Positions 7,894 through 36,800 of a stretch of DNA of 41,211 nucleotides are shown one piece after another (position 1 is the stretch's first letter; each line of letters begins with the position of its first letter). This stretch comes from Chiloscyllium plagiosum (Eukaryota), in NCBI RefSeq assembly GCF_004010195.1, contig NW_025214291.1:1-41211 (forward strand), read 5' to 3'. A model generated the notes under the pieces. The model saw nothing but the letters and a program-made list of their open reading frames with translations. It had not been told where the DNA came from and did no database searches. The position numbers and the translations under genes were made by a program.

Positions 7894-8508
7894 TCTTTTG
7901 CAAGGTTTGTGAAGGTTTGTAGCTCAGGTTGAGGTTTAGGGTGTAGGTTTGCTCACTGAGCTGTAGGTTTGATATCCAGACGTTTCATTACCTGGCTCGG
8001 TAACATCATCAGTGGCAACCTCCAAGTGAAGCGAAGCTGTTGTCTCCTGCTTTCTATTTATATCTTTCTCCTGGATGGGGTTCCTGGGGTTTGTGGTGAT
8101 GTCATTTCCTGTTCGTTTTCTGAGGGGTTAATAGATGGCATCTAGATCTATGTGCTTGTTTATGGCGTTGTGGTTGGAGTGCCAGGCCTCTAGGAATTCT
8201 CTGGCATGTCTTTGCTTAGCCTGTCCCAGCATAGATGTGTTGTCCCAGTCAAAATGGTGGTTTTTTTCATCCGTGTGAAGGGCTACGAGGGACAGAGGGT
8301 CGTGTCTTTTTGTGGCTAGCTGGTGTTCGTGTATCCTGGTGGCTAACTTTCTTCCTGTTTGTTCCACGTAGTGTTTGTGGCAGTCCTTACATGGAATTTT
8401 GTAGATGACGTTGGTTTTGTCCATGGGTTGTACTGGGTCTTTTAAGTTTGTTAGTTTATGTTTGAGAGTGTTGGTGGGTTTGTGTGCTACTAGGATTCCG
8501 AGGGGTCT
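7894..8508 (-). mobile_element. Penelope-like element: inverted 3' segment (GIY-YIG endonuclease end plus pseudo-LTR)
   Basis: ORF 8128-8424 NVIYKIPCKDCHKHYVEQTGRKLATRIHEH...AREFLEAWHS (GIY-YIG); reverse complement of 10112-10410. Confidence 0.9.
7971..8020 (-). ncRNA. Minimal type I hammerhead ribozyme motif in Penelope pLTR
   Basis: rc GGTTGCCA-CTGATGA-TGTTACC-GAGCCA-GGTAAT-GAAAC-GTC-TGGATATC: core CUGAUGA/GAAA, stem II, GUC site, stem I CCA/UGG. Confidence 0.7.
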
Positions 8509-8509
8509 T

Positions 8510-10411
8510 TATCTGTGTTTCGAAATATCGGGACCTGAAGAGAAAACTTGACAAACTCACAAACAAAGACAAAACCGATAACACAGGGGCATGGATAAAG
8601 AACTTATCAGACCGGACCCTATCAGACACAGAAGAAGCGGTACTAGTAAAAGGGTTAAATTTCAATTCAAGACGCTGACAAGCAGGATTTCCTAGCGGCA
8701 TTAGAAACCACATTGAAGGACAACAATCTCACAGACAGACAGACAGACAGACAGTTGCACCTACTCTGAGCCGAAAGAGGGAAGGAAACAAACTGAACAC
8801 ACAAGGAAAGAAAGCCGTAGAAAACCTCAAAAAAGACAAAACATTGTTATATTACCTGCAGACAAAGGTCGGCTCACAGTCATCCTGAACAGAAGGGACT
8901 ACATCGAGAAAGACAATGCACTACTCGCAGACACCAACATCTACCAAAAGGTGGCGCTAGACCCAACCCCACAACTAGGAAACAAAATGACATATCTCCG
9001 AAGAAAATTACACAATTCCGGACAATTAAACAAGACGGAATTCCAGAAAATGAAACCCGAGGGGACCAACACCCCACGATTCTATGGATTACCCAAAATC
9101 CATAAACCCGGAGCCTCCCTCAGACCTATCGTCTCACTACCCGGAACACCAACTTATAGACTGGCCAAAGAACTACACGCAAGACTGAAGTACCTAGTAG
9201 AAGAGTCACAGCACTCCATCCACTCCACCCAGGAATTCCTAAAAATCATCAAAAACACCAAAATAAAGGAAGACGAAACAATGATCTCATTCGACGTAAC
9301 AGCACTGTTCACCTCCATCAACATCGACCTNNNNNNNNNNNNNNNNNNNNNNNNNNNNNNNNNNNNNNNNNNNNNNNNNNNNNNNNNNNNNNNNNNNNNN
9401 NNNNNNNNNNNNNNNNNNNNNNNNNNNNNNNNNNNNNNNNNNNNNNNNNNNNNNNNNNNNNNNNNNNNNNNNNNNNNNNNNNNNNNNNNNNNNNNNNNNN
9501 NNNNNNNNNNNNNNNNNNNNNNNNNNNNNNNNNNNNNNNNNNNNNNNNNNNNNNNNNNNNNNNNNNNNNNNNNNNNNNNNNNNNNNNNNNNNNNNNNNNN
9601 NNNNNNNNNNNNNNNNNNNNNNNNNNNNNNNNNNNNNNNNNNNNNNNNNNNNNNNNNNNNNNNNNNNNNNNNNNNNNNNNNNNNNNNNNNNNNNNNNNNN
9701 NNNNNNNNNNNNNNNNNNNNNNNNNNNNNNNNNNNNNNNNNNNNNNNNNNNNNNNNNNNNNNNNNNNNNNNNNNNNNNNNNNNNNNNNNNNNNNNNNNNN
9801 NNNNNNNNNNNNNNNNNNNNNNNNNNNNNNNNNNNNNNNNNNNNNNNNNNNNNNNNNNNNNNNNNNNNNNNNNNNNNNNNNNNNNNNNNNNNNNNNNNNN
9901 NNNNNNNNNNNNNNNNNNNNNNNNNNNNNNNNNNNNNNNNNNNNNNNNNNNNNNNNNNNNNNNNNNNNNNNNNNNNNNNNNNNNNNNNNNNNNNNNNNNN
10001 NNNNNNNNNNNNNNNNNNNNNNNNNNNNNNNNNNNNNNNNNNNNNNNNNNNNNNNNNNNNNNNNNNNNNNNNNNNNNNNNNNNNNNNNNNNNNNNNNNNN
10101 NNNNNNNNNNNCACATCTATCCTGGGACAGGCTAAGCAAAGACATGCCAGAGAATTCCTAGAGGCCTGGCACTCCAACCACAACGCCATAAACAAACACA
10201 TAGATCTAGATGCCATCTATCAACCCCTCAGAAAATGAACAGGAAATGACATCAGCACAAACCCCAGGATCCCCATCCAGGACAAACATATAAATAGAAA
10301 GCAGGAGACAACAGCTTCGCTTCACTTGGAGGTAGCCAATGATGATGTTACCGAGCCAGGTAATGAAACGTCTGGATATCAAACCTACAGCTCAGCGAGC
10401 AAACCTACAGC
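8510..10411 (+). mobile_element. Penelope-like element body (RT-GIY-YIG ORF with frameshifts, spans N gap) plus 3' pLTR
   Basis: WIKNLSDRTLSDTEEAVLVKGLNFN; PRFYGLPKIHKPGASLRPIVSLPGTPTYRLAKEL...MISFDVTALFTSI; 3' part after gap AREFLEAWHS. Confidence 0.92.
9331..10111. other. Assembly gap (781 N) inside the Penelope element
   Basis: N run. Confidence 1.
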
Positions 10412-17711: not shown

Positions 17712-18211
17712 NNNNNNNNNNNNNNNNNNNNNNNNNNNNNNNNNNNNNNNNNNNNNNNNNNNNNNNNNNNNNNNNNNNNNNNNNNNNNNNNNNNNNNNNN
17801 NNNNNNNNNNNNNNNNNNNNNNNNNNNNNNNNNNNNNNNNNNNNNNNNNNNNNNNNNNNNNNNNNNNNNNNNNNNNNNNNNNNNNNNNNNNNNNNNNNNN
17901 NNNNNNNNNNNNNNNNNNNNNNNNNNNNNNNNNNNNNNNNNNNNNNNNNNNNNNNNNNNNNNNNNNNNNNNNNNNNNNNNNNNNNNNNNNNNNNNNNNNN
18001 NNNNNNNNNNNNNNNNNNNNNNNNNNNNNNNNNNNNNNNNNNNNNNNNNNNNNNNNNNNNNNNNNNNNNNNNNNNNNNNNNNNNNNNNNNNNNNNNNNNN
18101 NNNNNNNNNNNNNNNNNNNNNNNNNNNNNNNNNNNNNNNNNNNNNNNNNNNNNNNNNNNNNNNNNNNNNNNNNNNNNNNNNNNNNNNNNNNNNNNNNNNN
18201 NNNNNNNNNNN
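17712..18211. other. Assembly gap (500 N; true size probably unknown)
   Basis: Round-number N run; the CR1 on its left does not resume on its right. Confidence 1.
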
Positions 18212-24649: not shown

Positions 24650-24813
24650 GTGAGAGTGGGGCCACTGGATCAATTGCTGGCTGTCTCTACGGCCTCCTTT
24701 ATGGAATGGCAAACATCCCCAAAGGCTTATACAAGAATTTGGAGTTCAGGGAGAGACTGGAGGGGCTTGCAGAAGAACTGTACAAAGCAGCAAATGTCAG
24801 CAAAACCCCTTGA
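24650..24813 (+). CDS. ADPRHL1: ADPRHL1-like, terminal coding exon 7
   Basis: CAG| acceptor, phase 1; encodes (G)ESGATGSIAGCLYGLLYGMANIPKGLYKNLEFRERLEGLAEELYKAANVSKTP*, TGA 24811-24813. Confidence 0.92.
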
Positions 24814-24891
24814 GAGGTACAAGGGGGCAAAACCAGGTCACAACATTTCAGATTTCCTGTCATCTGTAAAGTTACTGAATGAACCACGAAT

Positions 24892-24897
24892 AATAAA
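24892..24897 (+). terminator. Candidate poly(A) signal of the ADPRHL1-like gene (alternative at 25686-25691)
   Basis: First AATAAA ~80 bp after the stop codon. Confidence 0.4.
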
Positions 24898-24924
24898 TGG
24901 ATACCGCGACAGATGTAAAAGATA

Positions 24925-25410: not shown

Positions 25411-26436
25411 ATAAAATTACATACTTCATCATATATTTTGAACACAAATCGCCTCAGGGTCTCCCTTGCTTGGACCCAGATGTTCAGCGTTTTTGGTTTT
25501 GTTTCTAATTGGAATTTCAGATGAACCGCAATTGATATCACACTAAGATTTGAGGGAAACACCAAGCAAATTTCACGCTACAATATTTCCAAAATGCCTT
25601 AGTACGTATAGTGTATTATCTAATATATATTAATGTATCCTTCTGTCATGTCCACCTTCTAATACTATGAAAGTGTATACTTTAAAATAAATGTAGGTGG
25701 ATTTTGACAGTGTACGTGTCATGTGTAATTTCCTGTATTAAGCATCGAAGTACGTTGTAGGATGGTGAGTTATAATCCCAGCTCCTCCATTGGTGCTCCC
25801 CATCATACCTCCACCATACTGCATATACCTACTGAATGGCAACATGTAATATTCATGTTTAAAACAAAAAAGGGCTTTAACCACAGGGCCTCCTGAACTG
25901 TGGGTTGCAAACTGTTGGGGGCAAATATTCAAGGCAGCAATGGGTGCCAAAAGCTGAGTGAGCCCCTTCAAATCTGAATTTGTTCTGTAAACTGGGCCTA
26001 GCCTTGAGGCTTGGTTCTGTGATGAAAGATCCTGTGTGAATGAGTAGGTGCTCTCTAACGTTTAAAAAAAAATCTGCCAATGGAACAGATCATTCTTTCT
26101 GCTGACCCCTGCTGTCACCCCCCCCCGCCCCTCACCAGAGTCATGGCTACTCTCAAACACCAACATAGGGTCACAGTGGGGACAAGGTTTGGAAAACAGC
26201 GAGGACAGTTTCCATAAACTTGGCTTTGCATTACCTTTAGTTTAGAAAACTGCAAGTTGATGTAACTGGATGGGCTTAGAACACCAGAGAATGATGAGGG
26301 AGGGGACAGGGAAGTCCAGAAGAAAAAAAGCCAGCAACAAAACAAGGGTTCGGTGGTTCAGGGATGATGGCGAGAGGCACTTTGTCAAAGAGCAATGGAA
26401 ATCTGGAACTTTCTCCATCACCCTACAGCAGCAGCA

Positions 26437-26461
26437 ACCCCCGCCCCCCCCCCCCCCCCCC
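26437..26461. repeat. Poly-C tract
   Basis: CCCCCGCCCCCCCCCCCCCCCCCCC. Confidence 0.9.
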
Positions 26462-26500
26462 GCACCGGATAGGCAAGATACTGACTAAGCATTATTTAAG

Positions 26501-26835
26501 GGGAGGCAATGGCTTTGTGGTATTATTGCTAGACTATTAATCGAGATACCCAGGCATTGTCCTGGGAACCTGGGTTCAAACTTTGCTATGGCAGATGGTG
26601 GAATGTGAATTCAATAAAAATCTGAAATTAAGAGTCAAATGTTGACCATTAGACCCTTTGTCAATTGTCAGAAAAATCCATCTTGTTCACCAATATCCTT
26701 TAGAGAAGGAAACTGTTGTTCTTACCTAGTCTGGCCCATGTGTGACTCCAGACCCACAGCAATGTGGATGATTCTCAAATACCCTGAGGGCAATTAGGGA
26801 TAGGCAATAAATTCTGACCTAATTTGAATGAATTT
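26501..26835 (+). mobile_element. Second tRNA-derived SINE family, near full length
   Basis: A-box-like TGGCTTTGTGG, B-box-like GGTTCAAAC, tail GGCAATAAAT...GAATGAAT; homologous to 3625-4110 and 40315-40530. Confidence 0.72.
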
Positions 26836-27004
26836 TTAAAAAAGTGTTACAGGCCCAAGAATGCACATTGCTAATAGTGACTGAAACTGGTTTACTCTGG
26901 TGTGGCAATGTACTGGTTGTGGGGAGAACTTCACCTTATGTAGATATTTAGGTTTAGCAACACAGTTCAACCTCCACTCCATCCACCATGACCATGGTTA
27001 CAGT

Positions 27005-27280
27005 ATGCTGTCTCCCTCTAACCTCCATCAGCTGACGGTTAAAGGCAGCAGGCATATGGGCACACTATTACCCTCAAGTTGTCCTCCCAAGTGGCATCCT
27101 TTGCCGAGACGGATGTGTGTCAGCCATTTCTTCAATGTCTTCAAGCTCCCGCCCTGTGCAGGTACTGTGGCTGTCCCTACACCAAATGAACTGCAGCAAA
27201 CTTAAAGAGAAGGCACCACACCATTCGAATGGGAATGTTATGATGGGGCTTTGCCAGTGATGCTCATATCTTGAGAATGC
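27005..27280 (+). mobile_element. Degraded 3' end of the unclassified LINE
   Basis: Similar to reverse complement of 19853-20425. Confidence 0.45.
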
Positions 27281-27364
27281 ATATTAGAAGCACAGTATTA
27301 GCATTTCAAGCAGCAGGTTTTACAGCACTCCCTATTCCTTAACTAAACAGCAGTAAACATGACT

Positions 27365-28668
27365 CAGAAGGAAGTATTCATTTTTTATTCAAACTTATAG
27401 ATTCCTTGCAAGATGTCATTTTATATCATACATTTTAAATAGGAAAATAATCCAAACTGTGTAGCATATAAAATTCCGTACATATTTGTAATCCTTACAT
27501 ATACTATTAAAATAATACTGAATAAATATTGAACATATATGCATGTAGAGAGATAGCTGATAAACTGACTGATCCATTAACAGCAGCCACACTAAGCTGA
27601 TTATGATATAGGTGGGTTCTTATGTCACAAACCTTTGGCAATTTTACATGTTTTGCCTGAAAAGTGCGCTTTCCACATTCAGACTTTGATTGCTGTGTGT
27701 TTAAATCTCCTGAATTTACCAAACGTCTGAGCTCTCTGCTGTGTAACTGACTTTAGTGCTTGTAACAGCTTCTTCCCCTGATAGACTTGCCTTTTTCAGA
27801 GGAATCCATCTCAATGTACTTGCACCAGTATTTTCAGGCCAAGAGAAAGATCAGCACTGGCCAGAGGTCACAGTGTCACTGCTGGTGGGCAATCCAAAGG
27901 ATTACTTTCATCATCTGACTCTAATGAGCACCGCGAGCCATTTGTCATTTTTAAAAGAAATCATTATTGGGGAAACAAAGTCTGTGCTTACTGTGTGCAC
28001 ACACCATCTCGCAATGCAGTTCTAACTGCATTGTTCTTGGTCATGTTATATCCTGGCAATTTCACTTGAAGGGCCGATGTACTGTTGACAGGAACCCAGT
28101 TTACTCAGGGGCCTGGAGTCTGATTGGAGATTACAAGAGGAAAGGCTGACCTTGCAAGCGGAGGTTATAAATCGAAATATATAAACACGATCTTATTCTG
28201 TATAACGTAGACCAGCTAACCATTTTAATACTGTATCAAAAATACAAGAATGTCCTTTGAATACTGTTGAGCCACTTTAAAGCTGGATCATCATCTTTTG
28301 GGTCTTGTGAAGGGCACTCAAGAGCCCAGGGGAGATTACTCAGAAGGCATGCTCACACACCTGGGCACCAAAACACACACCTGAGGCACAAATACTTGGC
28401 ACTGAGACAGATATCTGGGCACATATACCTGGCACATACATACACTTGCCAACAGCTGCACTGGATCTGCTACCAGCAGAAACTCTCAGCAATGTCAGTA
28501 AAATAATTTGTTAGTTTAATGATTAAAACTGTATAATTGTCAAAACCTTCAAGATAACATAAAGCCATGGCAGTGGTTTGGAGGGTGATTCTCATTTCAT
28601 ATACATATATATAAATATATATATAAACTTTGCATGCTAAATGAGGTTACAGTGATATGAAGTTCTCC
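27365..28668 (-). other. PHLDB2: Probable 3'UTR of the PHLDB2-like gene
   Basis: Between stop codon and AATAAA; AT-rich, with (TA)n run at ~28600-28625. Confidence 0.55.
27384..27389 (-). terminator. Candidate poly(A) signal of the PHLDB2-like gene
   Basis: AATAAA on - strand at the end of a ~1.3-kb AT-rich stretch after the stop codon with no recognisable interspersed repeats. Confidence 0.55.
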
Positions 28669-28842
<174 letters not shown>

Positions 28843-29098
28843 CTAAGAGGCTTATCAGCCTGCAACGTTTCCACATTACACAGAATCTATACTGAGGTGA
28901 TATTCCAACGGAATCTCTCTATTCCCGTCCTCAAAAGGACAGCCTGTCACTCTGACATTCACTGTCCTGTCAGCACATTCCAGAACCCAAGCAATTATCC
29001 GACCCTGCCCTTGTTATTATTCTGTTGCTTGGTTTTCTGGCAGTGCTTCACAGGGAGAGCTTTAAATAATAGTTTTTGAAGATATATATCAACTGTCC

Positions 29099-30567
29099 AG
29101 ACAGGAGGTCAGGGCAGGGTCATGACCCACACCCCCACCGAGACAGGAGGTCAGGGCAGAGTCATGACCCACACTCCCACTGAGACAGGAGGTCAGGGCA
29201 GGGTCATGACCCACACCCACACCAAGACAGGAGGTCAGGGCAGGGTCATGACCCACACCCCCACCTAGACAGGAGGTCAGGGCAGGGTCATGACCCACAC
29301 CCCCACCGAGACAGGAGGTCAGGGCAGGGTCATGACCCACACCGAGACAGGAGGTCAGGGCAGGGTCATGACCCACACCCCCACCTAGACAGGAGGTCAG
29401 GGCAGGGTCATGATCCACACCCCCAACGAGACAGGAGGTCAGGGCAGGGTCATGACCCACACCCCCACTGAGACAGGAGGTCAGGGCAGTGTCATGACCC
29501 ACACTCCCACCGAGACAGGAGGTCAGGGCAGGGTCATGGCCCACACCCCCACCTAGACAGGAGGTCAGGGCAGGGTCATGATCCACACTCCCAACGAGAC
29601 AGGAGGTCAGGGCAGGGTCATGACCCACACTCCCACTGAGACAGGAGGTCAGGGCAGGGTCATGACCCACACCCCCACTGAGACAGGAGGTCAGGGCAGG
29701 GTCATGGCCCACACCCCCACCGAGACAGGAGGTCAGGGCAGGGTAATGACCCACACCCCCACCGAGACAGGAGGTCAGGGCAGGGTCATGACCCACACTT
29801 CCTCCGAGACAGGAGGTCAGGGCAGGGTCATGACCCCCACCCCCACCGAGACAGGAGGTCAGGGCAAGGTCATGACCCACACCCCCACCTAGACAGGAGG
29901 TCAGGGCAGGGTCATGACCCACACTCCCACCTAGACAGGCAGTCAGGCAGGGTCATGACCCACACCCCCACCTAGACAGGAGGTCAGGGCAAGGTTATGA
30001 CCCACACTCCCACCTAGACAGAAGTTCGGGGCAGGGTCATGACCCACTCTCCCACCTAGACAGGAGGTCAGAGCAGAGTCATGACCCACACTCCCAACTA
30101 GACAGAAGTTCAGGGCAGGGTCATGACCCACACCCCCACCTAAACAGGAGGTCAGGGCAGGGTCATGACCCACACCCCCTCCTCGACAGGAGGTCAGGAC
30201 AGGGTCATGACCCACACTCCCACCTAGACAGGAGGTCAGGGCAGGGTCATGACCCACACTCCCACCTAGAAGGAGGTCAGGGCAGGGTCATGACCCACAT
30301 TCCCACTGAGACAGGAGGTCAGGGCAGGGTCATGACCCACACCCCCACCTAGAAGGAGGTCAGGGCAGGGTCATGACCCACACCCCCACCTAGACAGGCG
30401 GTCAGGGCAGGGTCATGACCCACACTCCCACCTAGACAGGAGGTCAGGGCAAGGTTATGACCCACACTCCCACCTAGACAGAAGTTCAGGGCAGGGTCAT
30501 GACCCACACCTCCACCGAGACAGAAGTTCGGGGCAGGGTCATGATCCATACTTTCACCTCGACAGGA
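29099..30567. repeat. 42-bp-unit minisatellite, ~35 copies, in the last intron of the PHLDB2-like gene
   Basis: Consensus AGACAGGAGGTCAGGGCAGGGTCATGACCCACAC(C/T)CCCAC(CG/CT/TG); head-to-tail, no spacers. Confidence 0.97.
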
Positions 30568-30854
30568 ACTTAGTACGAAGGGAATCAACAGTGCATGTTC
30601 TGCACCCTCATCACCCACCCGCAGGCCTCAAGCTCACTGAATACACTGGGAGCAACTGAAAAAGAAAGCCACCCGTTTTACTTCCAGAATGTGTGTCTCA
30701 TTCGCTTCCTCCTTTAATAGTAACAACAGACTGGCCTTGGACGAGGTTACCATGACAGTGTTGTAGACCCCAGTAACACCCAGTCCCCCAGAGTACATGT
30801 ACTTCACCAATGTGTCTACTGAAGAAACATCTGCAGTAATAATGAATGCGAACT

Positions 30855-31445
30855 GGATGCTGGCCCAGGGAACTGAGTATAAAGGGAGGAAGGTTTCGCT
30901 ACAACTAAACCAGACCCTAGTCAAACCACAGCTGGAAAACTGTCAACAATTTTGTGTTGCGGATCTGAGGGAAGATATTGGCGGCAGTCCTGTGAAGGTT
31001 CATTTGGGCTGATACAGGTATGGAATGATTATATTACAAGGAGAGGTTGAATATGTTTGGCCTGTACTCATTGGTGTTTAAAAGAATGAGAGGCAACCTT
31101 ATTAAACCTAAAAGATTCTTATGCAACTTGTCCAGGTAGATGTAGGTAGGACTGTCTCGGACCAGAGGACATAATCTCACCATGGGGAGTCATACATTTA
31201 AGACAGAGATGAGAAGGAATTTCTTCTTTCAGAGGGTAGTAAATCTGTGGAATTCTTTACCACAAAGGGCCGTATAGGCTGGGTCAGTAAGTATATTCAA
31301 GGCTGAGACAGACAGATGTTTACTCAGAAAGAGAATCAAAAGTTATGGGGTAAGGCAAGGAAGTGGAGTTGAGGACTCATGATCTCACTGAGTGGCAAAG
31401 CAGACTTGACGGGCTGAATGGCCTACTTCTGTCCCTCCATCTTAC
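30855..31445 (+). mobile_element. Degraded CR1 3' fragment
   Basis: TEYKGRKVSLQLNQTLVKPQLENCQQF; TTTAAGACAGAGATGAGAAGGAATTTCTTC; GGGCTGAATGGCCTACTTCTG. Confidence 0.8.
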
Positions 31446-31694
31446 ACAGGTTTACTCACGCTGCTCCTCTATCACGTCACAGTCAAAGCAGCTGCACTCT
31501 GACTTACTACTTACAGCAGCCTGCAGTCGGTACTCAGTACACTGTGTCACTCCCTTCCATTACAGGGCATTAAAAGGACCTTCAGCACATGAATTATCTT
31601 TATCTATAAATCAGGATGTGAGCTGCTGAGTGAGCAGAGTTATGAAGCCTGGAATAAAGAGAGGTTCGGCATGTTAATGTACAACGTTGAATCA

Positions 31695-31961
<267 letters not shown>

Positions 31962-32539
31962 TCAGGATTTACCTTCACAGAGAGCTCAAGGAGGTCAACC
32001 ATCTCTCATTGACAGCAGCGATCCCTGACACTTCTCCCTCACTCACTAACCCCCCCACCCCCACCCTCCCCTTCACATGCCCCCTCTCATTCTTAAATAT
32101 TGACACTCTCCAATAGTCCAACTCATTACAGTCTGCACCACAGCATTCCCAATCTCCACCTGATCCCATAAACATCACTCACCTGATTCCTCCCCAAAAA
32201 CCTCACTCAGAGCCCTCCAACCCCCGGCAACCTCACTCAGACCCAGGGGAAGGGTCCTTTTTGGCATTGGGGGCTGTTGCTGATGAGTAAAGGGAGTGGT
32301 GCCATTACAAACAGAAACACCAGCAAAAAGGGGAGCAGCTCCAGATCGAGGGGTGGCTGTGGGCCTGGATTGGGAAACACTGGCTTTTCCGGCTGGGTTT
32401 GGGTATCTCCACTCTCTTCCAGCTCCGGATAAGTGGGCAGGACCAGGATAGTGCGGCAGAATGGAGCTCCTGGAAGAACAGGGTGAGTGAGCTGGACAAT
32501 GGTGACATGTTCCTGGGAGACTCGGTGAAATGATTCAAA

Positions 32540-32775
32540 TGAAAGCAAAATACTGTGGATGCTGCAGATTTAAAATAACAACAAAGGGCTGGAGAAACTC
32601 AGCAGGTCTGACAGCGTCTGTGAACAAAGAAACAAAATGAGCGTTTCAAGCCTGAAATGCTTCATCTTCAGAACGCAGTTCTGAAAAATCGACATTTCCA
32701 ACTGGAAGTGTTAACTCTGTCTCTCCCTCCACAGATGCAGCCGACCTACTGACTTTCTCCTGCTCTTTCTGATGA
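32540..32775. mobile_element. Inverted pair of decayed Penelope-like termini (fold-back)
   Basis: GGAGAAACTCAGCAGGTCTGACAGCGTCTGTG (32591-) is complementary to CACAGATGCAGCCGACCTACTGACTTTCTCC (-32760); centre TTCAGAAC-GCA-GTTCTGAA. Confidence 0.6.
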
Positions 32776-33207
32776 TATTAAAGGTCATTCCCACGCTGGG
32801 GCTAGTGATGTGATCATAGGAGCTGCTGGATTGCTATACAAGCCCCACAGGGATGTGGGCTCATCCTACACAATGTGGTTGAGCCCAGCTCTGGGCAACT
32901 CACCCAGGACCAAGATCAAGAGCAATTGAGATGAAGATTTTCAGCAGGATGGTACCAGTGATGTGGAGCGATGAGGACGAGGAACTGGGCTGTATATCTG
33001 ACTACAACCTTCTCTGCTTTGAGGAGGACACAATATGTGCCCAAAATCTTGCTTAATTCGGATCAAGTACAGAGGTGAAACTGCTTCCAGTGGCAAGTAG
33101 GATCGATGAGCAGAAGGCACAGATTTAAAGGGACCTGCAAAATTGCAGAAGGTGACATGTGGGAATATTTCCTCTAAGCCTCATAAGTGAGGGAATGAAT
33201 GGCCTCA

Positions 33208-33495
<288 letters not shown>

Positions 33496-33889
33496 TCAAC
33501 CCTCATTACATCTACACTCATCCACTGCGGCTTTTGTTTTGCACCTTTGCTGGAAGAGAATATTCCCAAAAGGCTTTCTGCAGGAGCAAAGTAGGAAGAT
33601 AACAGGTCAGATAACCTAAAGTTTGTGCAAAGAGGCAGAATTGTCTTAAAAGAGGGATAGAACCGGAAATAACTCTGTCCCTTAGGGCCCAGACAACTGA
33701 AGATGCAGTCACTAAAGGTGGAGGAATTAAAATCAGGGAAACACAACAGGCCAGAGTTCGAGAACATCAGATACCTCAGAGAGTTAATGCAGATGTTGCT
33801 GCCCCACCTCCGTTTTGTGCTGGGTGGTAGTGTGGTTTCTGGATGGATCACATTCTGTTGCTTGGATAAACTGGAAGTTCATCATGTGC

Positions 33890-36800
33890 TGGCCAGGGTA
33901 GAAATGAAAGAATAGGCAGGTTCAACACGTGGCTTGAGGGATGGTGTAGGAGGGAGGGCTTCAGATTTGTGGAACGTTGGGACCGGTTCTGGGGAAGGTG
34001 GGACTATTACAAATTGAATGGACTACGCCTGAACCAGGCTGGAACTGACGTCCTTGGGGGGAGTTTTGGCGACTGCTGCTGTGGAGGGTTTAAACTAATG
34101 TGGCACAGGGGCTGGGAACCAGAAGAGAAGACTCGTAGACAGCGAGGTGGAGACTGGAGACTGTAAGGATCATGAAGTTAGCATTACCAAGGGGAAGAGA
34201 AGGCAGACAGCAGATGAACTCAAAGGAACTGGTGGTCTGAAGTTTAATGCAAGGAGTATAGTGGGTAAGGCAGACAAACTTAGGGCTTGGATTGGTGCCT
34301 GGGAGTATGACGTTATTGCGATCACAGAGACTTGGGTGAAGGAAGGACATGACAGGCAAGTAAACGTTCCAGGATATAGATGCTTCAAACAGGACAGGGA
34401 AGGAAGTAAAGGTGGGGGGATGGTTGCATTGCCGGTCAGGAATGATATCACGGCTGTGCTAAAGGAGGACACTATGGAGGACTTGAGCAGTGAGGTATTA
34501 TGGGTAGAGCTGAAAAATAAAGGTGCAGTTACATTGTTGGGGCTGTACTACAGGCCTCCCAATTGTGAGCGTGAGGTAGAAGAACAAATGGGTAAACAGA
34601 TTATGGAAAGGTGTAGAGGCAACAGAGTGGTGGTGATGGGAGATTTTAATTTTCCCAACATTGCATCAGAGGCCTGGATGGGGCAGAATTTGTAAGGAGC
34701 ATCCAGGAAAGTTTTCTAGAGCAGTATGTCATTGAGTCCAATGAGGGAAGAGGCCATATGGGACCTGATATTGGGGAATGAGCCCAGGCCAGGTGGTAGA
34801 AGTTGCGGTGGGGGATTTTTTTGGGAACAGTGACCACAATTCTGTAAGTTTTAGAATACTCGTAGACAAAGATGAGAGTGGTCCTAAGGGAAGAGTACTA
34901 AACTGGGCCAAGGCCAATTACATCAAAGTTAGGCAGGAGCTGGGAAATGTGGATTGGACACAGCTATTTGAAGGGAAGTCTACATTTGAGATGTGGGAGG
35001 CTTTCAAAGATAGTGCAGGACAGGCATGTCCCGTTGAAAACAAGGGATAGGAAGGGCAAGATTCGTGAACCATGGATGACGGGAGAAATTGTACGACTAG
35101 CCAAGAGGAAAAGGGAAACGTACATAAGGTCTAGGCAGCTTAGAACAGAATGGGCCCTGGAGGAATATTGAGAGAGTAGAACAAGTCTTAAACGAGGAAT
35201 CAAGCGGGCTAAAAGGGCTCATGAAATAGCTTTAGTGAGCAGAATTAAGAAGAATCCCAAAGCATTTTATTCTTATATAAGAAGCAAGTGGGTAACTAGA
35301 GAAAGGGTTGGTCCATTAAAGGATAATGAAGGAAGGCTGTGTGCCGAACCTGAGAGAATGGGTGAGATTCTGAATGATTACTTTGCATCAGTGTTCAATG
35401 AGGAGAGGAACATGATGAATCTTGAGATTAGATATAGAAGTTTGATTAGTCTGGATCATGTTGACATAAGTAGGGGAGATGTGTTGGGTAGGCTGGAGGT
35501 TATTAAGGTGGACAAATCCCCAGGACCGGATGGGATCTATCCCAGGTTGCTGAGGGAGGCGAGAGAGGAAATAGCTGGGGCCCTGACAGATATCTTTGTG
35601 ACATCCTTAAATACAAGTGAGGTGCCAGAGGACTGGAAGATTGCTCATGTTTGTACCCTTGTACAAGAAGGGTAGTAGGGATATTCCAGTTAACTACAGA
35701 CCAGTGAGCCTGACATAGGTGATGGGAAAGTTGCTGGAGAAGGTACTGTGGTATAAGACCTATTTATATTTGTAAACGATTGGGCTTATCAATGATAGGC
35801 AACATGGTTTTTTGCAGGAGAGATTGTGCCTTACCAACTTAATAGAGTTCTTTGAGGAAGTGAGCAAGTTGATAGATGAAGGAAGGGCTGTAGATGTCAT
35901 ATAAATGGACTTTAGTAAGGCTTTGATAAGGTTCCCCATGGTAGACTAATGGAGAAAGTGAAGTCACACGGTGTGCAAGGTGTTCTGGCTAGGTGGGTAA
36001 AGAACTGGCTGAGCAACGGGAGACAGAGTGTAGTAGTTGAAGGGAGTTTCTCGAAATGGAGAAAGGTGACCAGTGGTGTTCCACACCAGGTCAGTGCTGG
36101 GGCCACTGTTGTTTGTGATATACACAAATGATCTGGAAGAGGGCACTGTTGGTATGATCAGCAAGTTTGCAGATGACACGAAGATTGGTGGAATAGCAGA
36201 AAGCATAAGGGACTGTCAAAGAATACAGGAGAATATAGATAGACTGGAGAGTTGGGCGGAAAAGTGGCAGATGGATTTCAATCCAGACAAATGTGAGGTG
36301 ATGCATCTTGAGAGGTCTAATTCTAGAGCGAGCTATACTGTAAATGGAAGAGCCTTGGGAAAAGTTGATGAGCAGAGAAAACTGGGAGTTCAGGTCCATT
36401 GTACCCTGATGGTCGCTGCACAGGCGGATAGGGTGGTCAAGAAGGCATATAGTATGCTTGCCTTCATTGGACAGGGTATTGAGTATAAAAGCTGGCAGGT
36501 CATGTTAAAATTGTACAAGACTTTGGTTCAGCTGTATTTAGAATACTGTGCACAGTTTTGGTCACCACATTACCAAAAGGAAGTGGATGCTTTGGAGAGG
36601 GTGCAGAGAAGGTTAATGAGGATGTTGCCTGGTATGGAAGGTGCCAGCTATGAAGAGAGATTGAGTAGGATTGTTTTCATGAGAAAAAAGGAGATTAAGG
36701 GGGGACCTGATTGAAGTCTACAAAATCATGAAGAGTATGGACAGGGTGGATAGAGATAAGCTTATTCCCAGGGATCCAATAATATGAAGTCACATATTCA

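Follow-up and report, generated by a model that had tools for sequence, protein, structure and literature searches.

Tandem repeats that multiply the motif of a transcription factor are an established kind, and a close parallel to the locus described here is provided by the MORC3-restricted repeats of human cells, the IFNB1-MRE included, in which an intronic repeat multiplies the motif of one factor tens of times (Krumwiede et al. 2026, PMC13373173). These repeats are reported to hold up to 61 motifs, with 45 PU.1 sites in the IFNB1-MRE; SP/KLF-like clusters occur among them, and their copy number varies (PMC13373173). A second parallel is the 23-bp element of the human ESRRA promoter, a tandem nuclear-receptor element described as a functional ERR element, present in one to four copies less than 700 bp from the start site (Laganiere et al. 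2004, cited in PMC7031416). Regarding the receptor elements themselves, an earlier note on this DNA had given RGKTCA-n5-RGKTCA (DR5) as the canonical RAR/RXR element and IR0 as a bound palindrome, in agreement with the published consensus and with the motifs reported as bound (PMC8608873, PMC7515732): in zebrafish ChIP the RAR motif ranked first is DR5, with IR0 in third place (PMC8608873), RXR-RAR is described as binding IR0 (PMC7515732), and some of the composite elements in RAR/RXR-bound regions are called coincidental by the authors of that report (PMC4446430). Two further classes of repeat are comparable, namely the hypervariable minisatellites with the Jeffreys core, which are GC-rich, carry interspersed variants, stand at single loci and have a tabulated core sequence in humans (PMC9069542, PMC2408603), and the Alu elements, whose amplification multiplied consensus DR2 and DR4 receptor elements without prior selection (PMC1785376).

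The array considered here lies at 29099–30567 (no strand assigned) in a window of 41,211 nucleotides from the shark Chiloscyllium plagiosum. Tandem Repeats Finder gives it a period of 42, 35.2 copies, 90% matches and a score of 2294, which bears out the earlier count of about 35 tandem copies of a 42-bp unit. Alignment of the 34 anchor-to-anchor units yields 31 distinct sequences with a mean pairwise identity of 90%; the unit is purine-biased, the G+C content of the array is about 62%, and variant units are interspersed along this head-to-tail array of a 10–100-bp unit, as in other minisatellites and VNTRs. The minisatellite occupies a single locus and is not part of a dispersed satellite family, a conclusion supported by the sequencing run X1, from another individual of the same species, where a contig of an exact 36-base unit has 9.0 times the single-copy depth as against 9.2 copies in the array, a rough measure taken in one run; this agreement also backs the rough use of depth made below. 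The same run contains unit variants absent from the window.

A PHLDB-type gene on the minus strand houses the array in its last coding intron (28810–31817; 3008 nt, GT-AG at the splice sites), 289 bp from the last acceptor and on its upstream side in the sense of the gene. The last three exons (33471–33252, 31903–31818 and 28809–28669) lead into a C-terminal PH domain, the start of which gives a Pfam match in the first of them (PH, E 1.8e-06, with PH chains in the PDB) and the end of which, followed by the stop codon, matches in the last (PH, E 0.0046, below the curated cut-off); the 86-nt penultimate exon has no Pfam match when searched alone. The 3′ UTR covers 27371–28668 on the same strand, with AATAAA at about 27384–27389; next to it the transcript ends in run X15, where a poly(A)-like loose end stands at 27371. 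This run is RNA-like and has no cover beyond that position. An Atlas search with the host gene returned PH-domain matches of at most 0.85, one of them named PHLDB1 at 0.80, to be read as leads only; following the earlier note, the gene is presumably PHLDB2. A plus-strand gene, presumably ADPRHL1-like, with its last exon at about 24650–24920, stands tail to tail with the PHLDB-type 3′ end, and this last exon gave no Pfam match.

The reading of the unit as DR5 plus IR0 is confirmed, since the unit carries AGGTCA-n5-GGGTCA with TGACCC immediately after. In the first unit, the DR5 spans 29106–29122 (plus strand), and the IR0, a 12-bp perfect palindrome that shares the second half-site, spans 29117–29128 (no strand assigned). 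Of the 35 units, 31 retain half-site 1, 29 retain half-site 2 and 30 retain the inverted half-site 3, leaving RGKTCA half-sites at DR5 spacing in 25 units, at IR0 spacing in 24 and all three together in 21. Within the 1469 bases of the array, half-sites match 60 times in forward and 30 times in reverse orientation, which amounts to tens of homotypic motifs in one tandem repeat, and a search of the rest of the window found neither DR5 nor IR0. The IR0 palindrome is also bound by TR. Two details of the earlier description are weaker than claimed: the CCACACCC box, which we take to be a KLF/SP motif, is present but in 17 of the 35 units only, and AGTTCA, given as a variant within the consensus, is confirmed at 30107 and 30483, although the same G>T change occurs in four units, two of which read AGTTCG and have a broken site.

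In comparison with the systems above, the array shares with canonical RAREs the exact RGKTCA half-sites, the DR5 spacing, the IR0 and the three-half-site composite (PMC8608873, PMC4446430, PMC7515732), and by its motif content it may be counted among the motif-multiplying repeats. The MORC3-restricted repeats, however, carry SPI, AP-1 or SP/KLF motifs with chromatin and reporter evidence, whereas the array carries putative nuclear-receptor half-sites; the IFN element is reported to keep its motif cluster across mammals, whereas the array is compared with one close relative (PMC13373173). The few ESRRA copies stand at a promoter, in contrast to 35 copies of DR5 plus IR0, as predicted sites, in a last intron (PMC7031416), and Alu elements are retroposon-dispersed over more than 100,000 sites, in contrast to the single-locus tandem array described here, for which a source element was not found (PMC1785376). 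Functional RAREs such as the skap1 intron site are described as conserved from fish to mammals and rest on ChIP and transgenes, unlike the half-sites of the array, in which constraint is not seen. Literature searches that covered few subscription papers found no tandem-repeat enhancer or minisatellite made of DR5/IR0, retinoid or thyroid elements, and nothing relevant on shark RAR and DR5.

Under plain null models the composite is rare, as shuffling the unit 1,000,000 times by base and 300,000 times by dinucleotide never produced an exact DR5+IR0, and gave three half-sites in any arrangement 9 and 119 times, respectively; together with the motif counts, this absence from the shuffles shows that the earlier description of the motifs was right. 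The rarity of the exact composite per unit counts against a neutral reading of the array and speaks for a selected enhancer; the origin model that would account for it is post hoc. Several features of the unit are nevertheless consistent with an origin from within. The unit matches itself in excess at lags 5 and 6 (p 0.015), and the step between the DR5 half-sites is 11 bp; the unit may thus have been built from degenerate 5–6-bp GNCAG-like subrepeats, two steps of which (5+6 = 11 bp) would place two GGTCA words at DR5 spacing, and a 12-bp fold-back palindrome would supply the IR0. The same seven bases, GACAGGA, open the array (29100–29106, plus strand) and close it (30561–30567, in the extra 0.2 copy). 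Identical ends of this sort usually point to an initial duplication between short repeats, and this word is the likely seed between whose copies the unit would have been duplicated; a literature search on the birth of minisatellites between direct repeats found nothing relevant. Expansion would have followed by slippage or unequal exchange, aided by palindrome pairing between neighbouring units, a pairing that is seen for the 12-bp palindrome in single-strand folds, one of three multi-unit folds being significant (two units, z −4.06 via the palindrome; three units, z −1.01 and −1.71). A hairpin within the single unit was considered and rejected, as its folding is no better than that of shuffles (z −0.12 and −0.45). 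A coding role was also discarded: the 287-aa repeat frame on the sense strand stays open simply because 42 is divisible by 3, and neither this frame nor four other intronic frames have a Pfam match.

The frequency at which such units would be met can be gauged with the number of human minisatellite loci, 191,286, as a stand-in (PMC8096271). To an order of magnitude only, as it combines a human locus count with random units, this gives about 15 random 42-bp units with a DR5, about one with some named triple and 0.014 with the exact composite, and a post hoc model in which units arise through a single duplication and a single fold-back yields about 240 of 191,286 units with three half-sites; on this rough modelling, scans of many genomes would be expected to meet such three-half-site units. 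Compared with the human hypervariable minisatellite core, the unit gives 13 matches with a 2-base gap (p 0.017, dinucleotide shuffles), the first 13 bases of the core all being matched around a 2-base insertion, although the resemblance is modest and post hoc (PMC9069542). As to a source element, Rfam gave no match over 26000–34000, no degenerate unit in either flank was significant (best p 0.057 and 0.08 among six tests), and the best unit match elsewhere in the window had a score of 36, which one of 40 shuffles reached. To the right of the array, 30588–30620 bears a weak likeness to the unit (p about 0.08) and is perhaps a decayed copy, and about 90 bases left of the array stands an exact inverted copy of an 11-mer of the core (p 0.057).

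The distribution of changes among units does not set the half-sites apart. Over the 34 anchor-to-anchor units, 47 of the 77 substitution cells fall in the 12 C-rich linker columns, and the earlier statement that most variation lies in the linker holds by this count; 31 of the 47, however, come from two dimorphic columns, each about evenly split between two bases, and half-site columns do not differ from the others either in substitution cells (permutation p 0.21) or in distinct alleles (11 in 18 half-site columns versus 16 in 24 others, permutation p 0.49). When the two old dimorphic linker columns are left out of the comparison set, departures from the consensus amount to 22 of 612 half-site cells (3.6%) versus 24 of 748 others (3.2%; Fisher p 0.76), so that the half-sites are as variable as the linker, an outcome that the earlier note had itself named as telling against its reading. 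Nine of the 11 half-site alleles break RGKTCA and two are tolerated (13% expected by chance, p 0.43), and variants show no clear trend from one end of the array to the other (Spearman 0.31, p 0.07). Selective constraint on the half-sites is thus not detected, in a test of limited power, because the 21 intact sites are redundant, and selection acting on the summed output of the array would barely register in any one unit. The half-sites decay no more slowly than the remainder of the unit, and the array is therefore in all likelihood a common tandem repeat and not a selected hormone switch; neutral expansion of a chance motif, which the earlier note had kept as its fallback, is the better-supported reading.

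The other proposal of that note was a selected retinoid or thyroid-hormone enhancer, scaled by copy number and acting on the PHLDB-type gene or its tail-to-tail neighbour, which we consider quite unlikely. Similarly doubtful is its fuller form, in which a 35-fold DR5+IR0 multimer occupied by RAR/RXR or TR would serve as a length-tunable, ligand-responsive enhancer or internal promoter selected on total site number, with an unspliced poly(A) contig as its transcript. Apart from the rarity of the composite, such an enhancer is suggested by the presence of the array at the same base in two species, by the fact that the poly(A)-ended contig begins in the array in one RNA-like run, which initiation there could explain, and by the precedents of the ESRRA element, with its 1–4 copies (PMC7031416), and of the IFNB1 repeat enhancer (PMC13373173). 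These points are outweighed by the lack of half-site constraint and of any excess of tolerated changes, by a first unit that is broken in both runs of the sister species, with an unrelated stretch after it in one, and by the helical phase. The intervals between anchors are 42 bp in 30 of 34 cases, 41 bp in three and 36 bp in one, and these indels split the array into five phase blocks of 6, 14, 8, 2 and 5 units at angles of 0, 154, 120, 86 and 51 degrees (10.5 bp per turn); with four of 34 intervals at 36 or 41 bp and blocks up to 154 degrees apart, the sites do not lie on one face of the DNA, as had been proposed. In a literature search on PHLDB2 and retinoic acid, neither term stood in the titles among the matches listed. 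With half-sites as variable as the linker, phasing broken and the first unit damaged in the sister species, the inference of a selected multimerised enhancer is not supported.

Further evidence comes from the sister species, designated organism B. The flank and the first unit were found in runs of two organisms (18 of the 21 listed rows, six studies), and 27250–29140, which covers both, was compared in four of the 21 listed runs. The flank of organism B diverges at 64 of 1868 bases (3.4%), a rate of the same size as that of the departures within the array. In contigs of both its runs (X9 and X14) the array starts at the same base as in the window and matches as far as 29117, where an A-rich insert replaces the second half-site and the palindrome, breaking the first unit in both. 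In X14 the insert is followed by at least 255 letters, the start of which has no match in the window beyond chance; insert and unrelated letters are possibly a polymorphic mobile-element insertion. Short contigs of organism B identical to 29099–29131, the whole composite, reach a depth of 240 versus 9–17 in the single-copy flank, which corresponds to roughly 14–26 exact 33-base copies, a rough figure as the contigs are unanchored and their assignment to the locus presumptive; the array in the window holds 13–14 copies of the same word, and a crude estimate of neutral decay leaves 6–11 exact 33-mers. The persistence of the array in two species, with about 14–26 exact composite copies in organism B, counts against a neutral reading, although neutral decay predicts a similar number. 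Both dimorphic linker variants are also present in organism B and hence predate the species split, being old and not a sign of a freer linker. Units with broken sites are revealed by loose ends in both runs of organism B and in a further individual of C. plagiosum, in which one unit has both direct half-sites broken. The array with its variants in organism B and these broken units show that it is older than the split from the sister species and tolerant of damage; expansion would have taken place before the split, with later decay even along the unit. In the 3′ UTR, at 28363, organism B has a 13-base insertion in both compared runs.

A cluster that is active in vivo while unselected has also to be weighed, in which the approximately 21 perfect composites would bind RXR heterodimers, COUP-TF or further proteins that recognise half-sites, and in some cell types would act incidentally as an enhancer or a silencer. 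The high density of consensus sites agrees with this possibility, as does the report that RAR/RXR-bound regions often contain composite and multiple elements (PMC4446430), and homotypic tandem-repeat clusters are described as recruiting both factors and repressors and as giving higher reporter activity when more repeats are present (PMC13373173). Nevertheless, consensus DR5s occur in thousands per genome (5786 in human), and a match is no proof of binding (PMC1785376); moreover, of the MORC3-restricted repeats, two only are reported to have activated neighbouring genes, and only upon loss of MORC3 (PMC13373173). In our estimation, occupancy of this kind is unlikely.

The RNA-like run X15 bears on a possible effect of the array on splicing of the last intron, in which the units would act as decoy or recursive acceptors and slow intron removal. 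On the sense strand of the gene, many units read a branch-like CTGAC, a pyrimidine tract and a YAG, often with GT directly after. The array contains 21 YAG sites with 14–16 pyrimidines in the 20 upstream bases, compared with 13 at the real acceptor and a median near 10–11 at the 53 YAGs in the rest of the intron, and 15 of the 21 read TAG|GT, a shape like that of recursive splice sites. In agreement with slowed removal, a single long contig of X15 (27371–29137) starts in the second unit, crosses the last exon and the 3′ UTR and reaches the poly(A) end with no splicing, and spliced joints are absent over 27250–29140 among the contigs listed. However, the tracts consist largely of C, only about 12 bases separate the branch-like word from the AG, in-phase use of such an acceptor would lead to a stop after nine codons and cut the PH domain, and no joint from the upstream exon to the array is present among the contigs listed. 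The contig, from one run in which contigs only are available, is a hint that fits intron retention, nascent RNA, 3′ bias or initiation in the array, and nascent RNA or 3′ bias explain it equally well. An effect on splicing is the most improbable of the alternatives. Other array contigs in X15 have a depth of 3.5–6.8 versus a contig mean of 92.7. A low-depth contig of this run joins the right flank, 30764–30782, onto a unit at a 5-base shared word, either a template switch or a duplicated allele.

With the test of selection negative, a neutral intronic minisatellite is the likeliest of the four readings and, in our judgement, probably the right one: a GC-rich array at a single locus, whose incidental receptor motifs would bind in vitro and be ignored or silenced in vivo. 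From their match to the consensus, intact units are predicted to bind RAR/RXR-type dimers in vitro, and the array, which resembles a multimerised RARE, would probably bind like one. In vivo it would most likely be closed repeat chromatin, with no selected hormone-dependent effect on the host gene, and most of the MORC3-restricted repeats in human cells are reported to be without general gene-regulatory activity (PMC13373173). Against this neutral reading, 193 of 1071 tested human VNTR-gene pairs (about 18%) are associated with expression, which indicates that some effect on expression is not rare (PMC8096271). If the array is neutral, it cautions that a repeat born by internal duplication and fold-back may spell out textbook receptor elements, which are then multiplied by expansion; if it is active, it would be a natural counterpart of the multimerised RARE reporters of the laboratory and evidence that minisatellite length can confer and tune hormone sensitivity. 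In either case the array is a cheap test object, because intact and broken units stand side by side.

As regards the rest of the window, LINE-like fragments are numerous throughout, and two assembly gaps are present (9331–10111 and 17712–18211), the first of which sits in a reverse-transcriptase-like frame, with its flanking pieces repeated at about 8128–8508 and 10112–10240.
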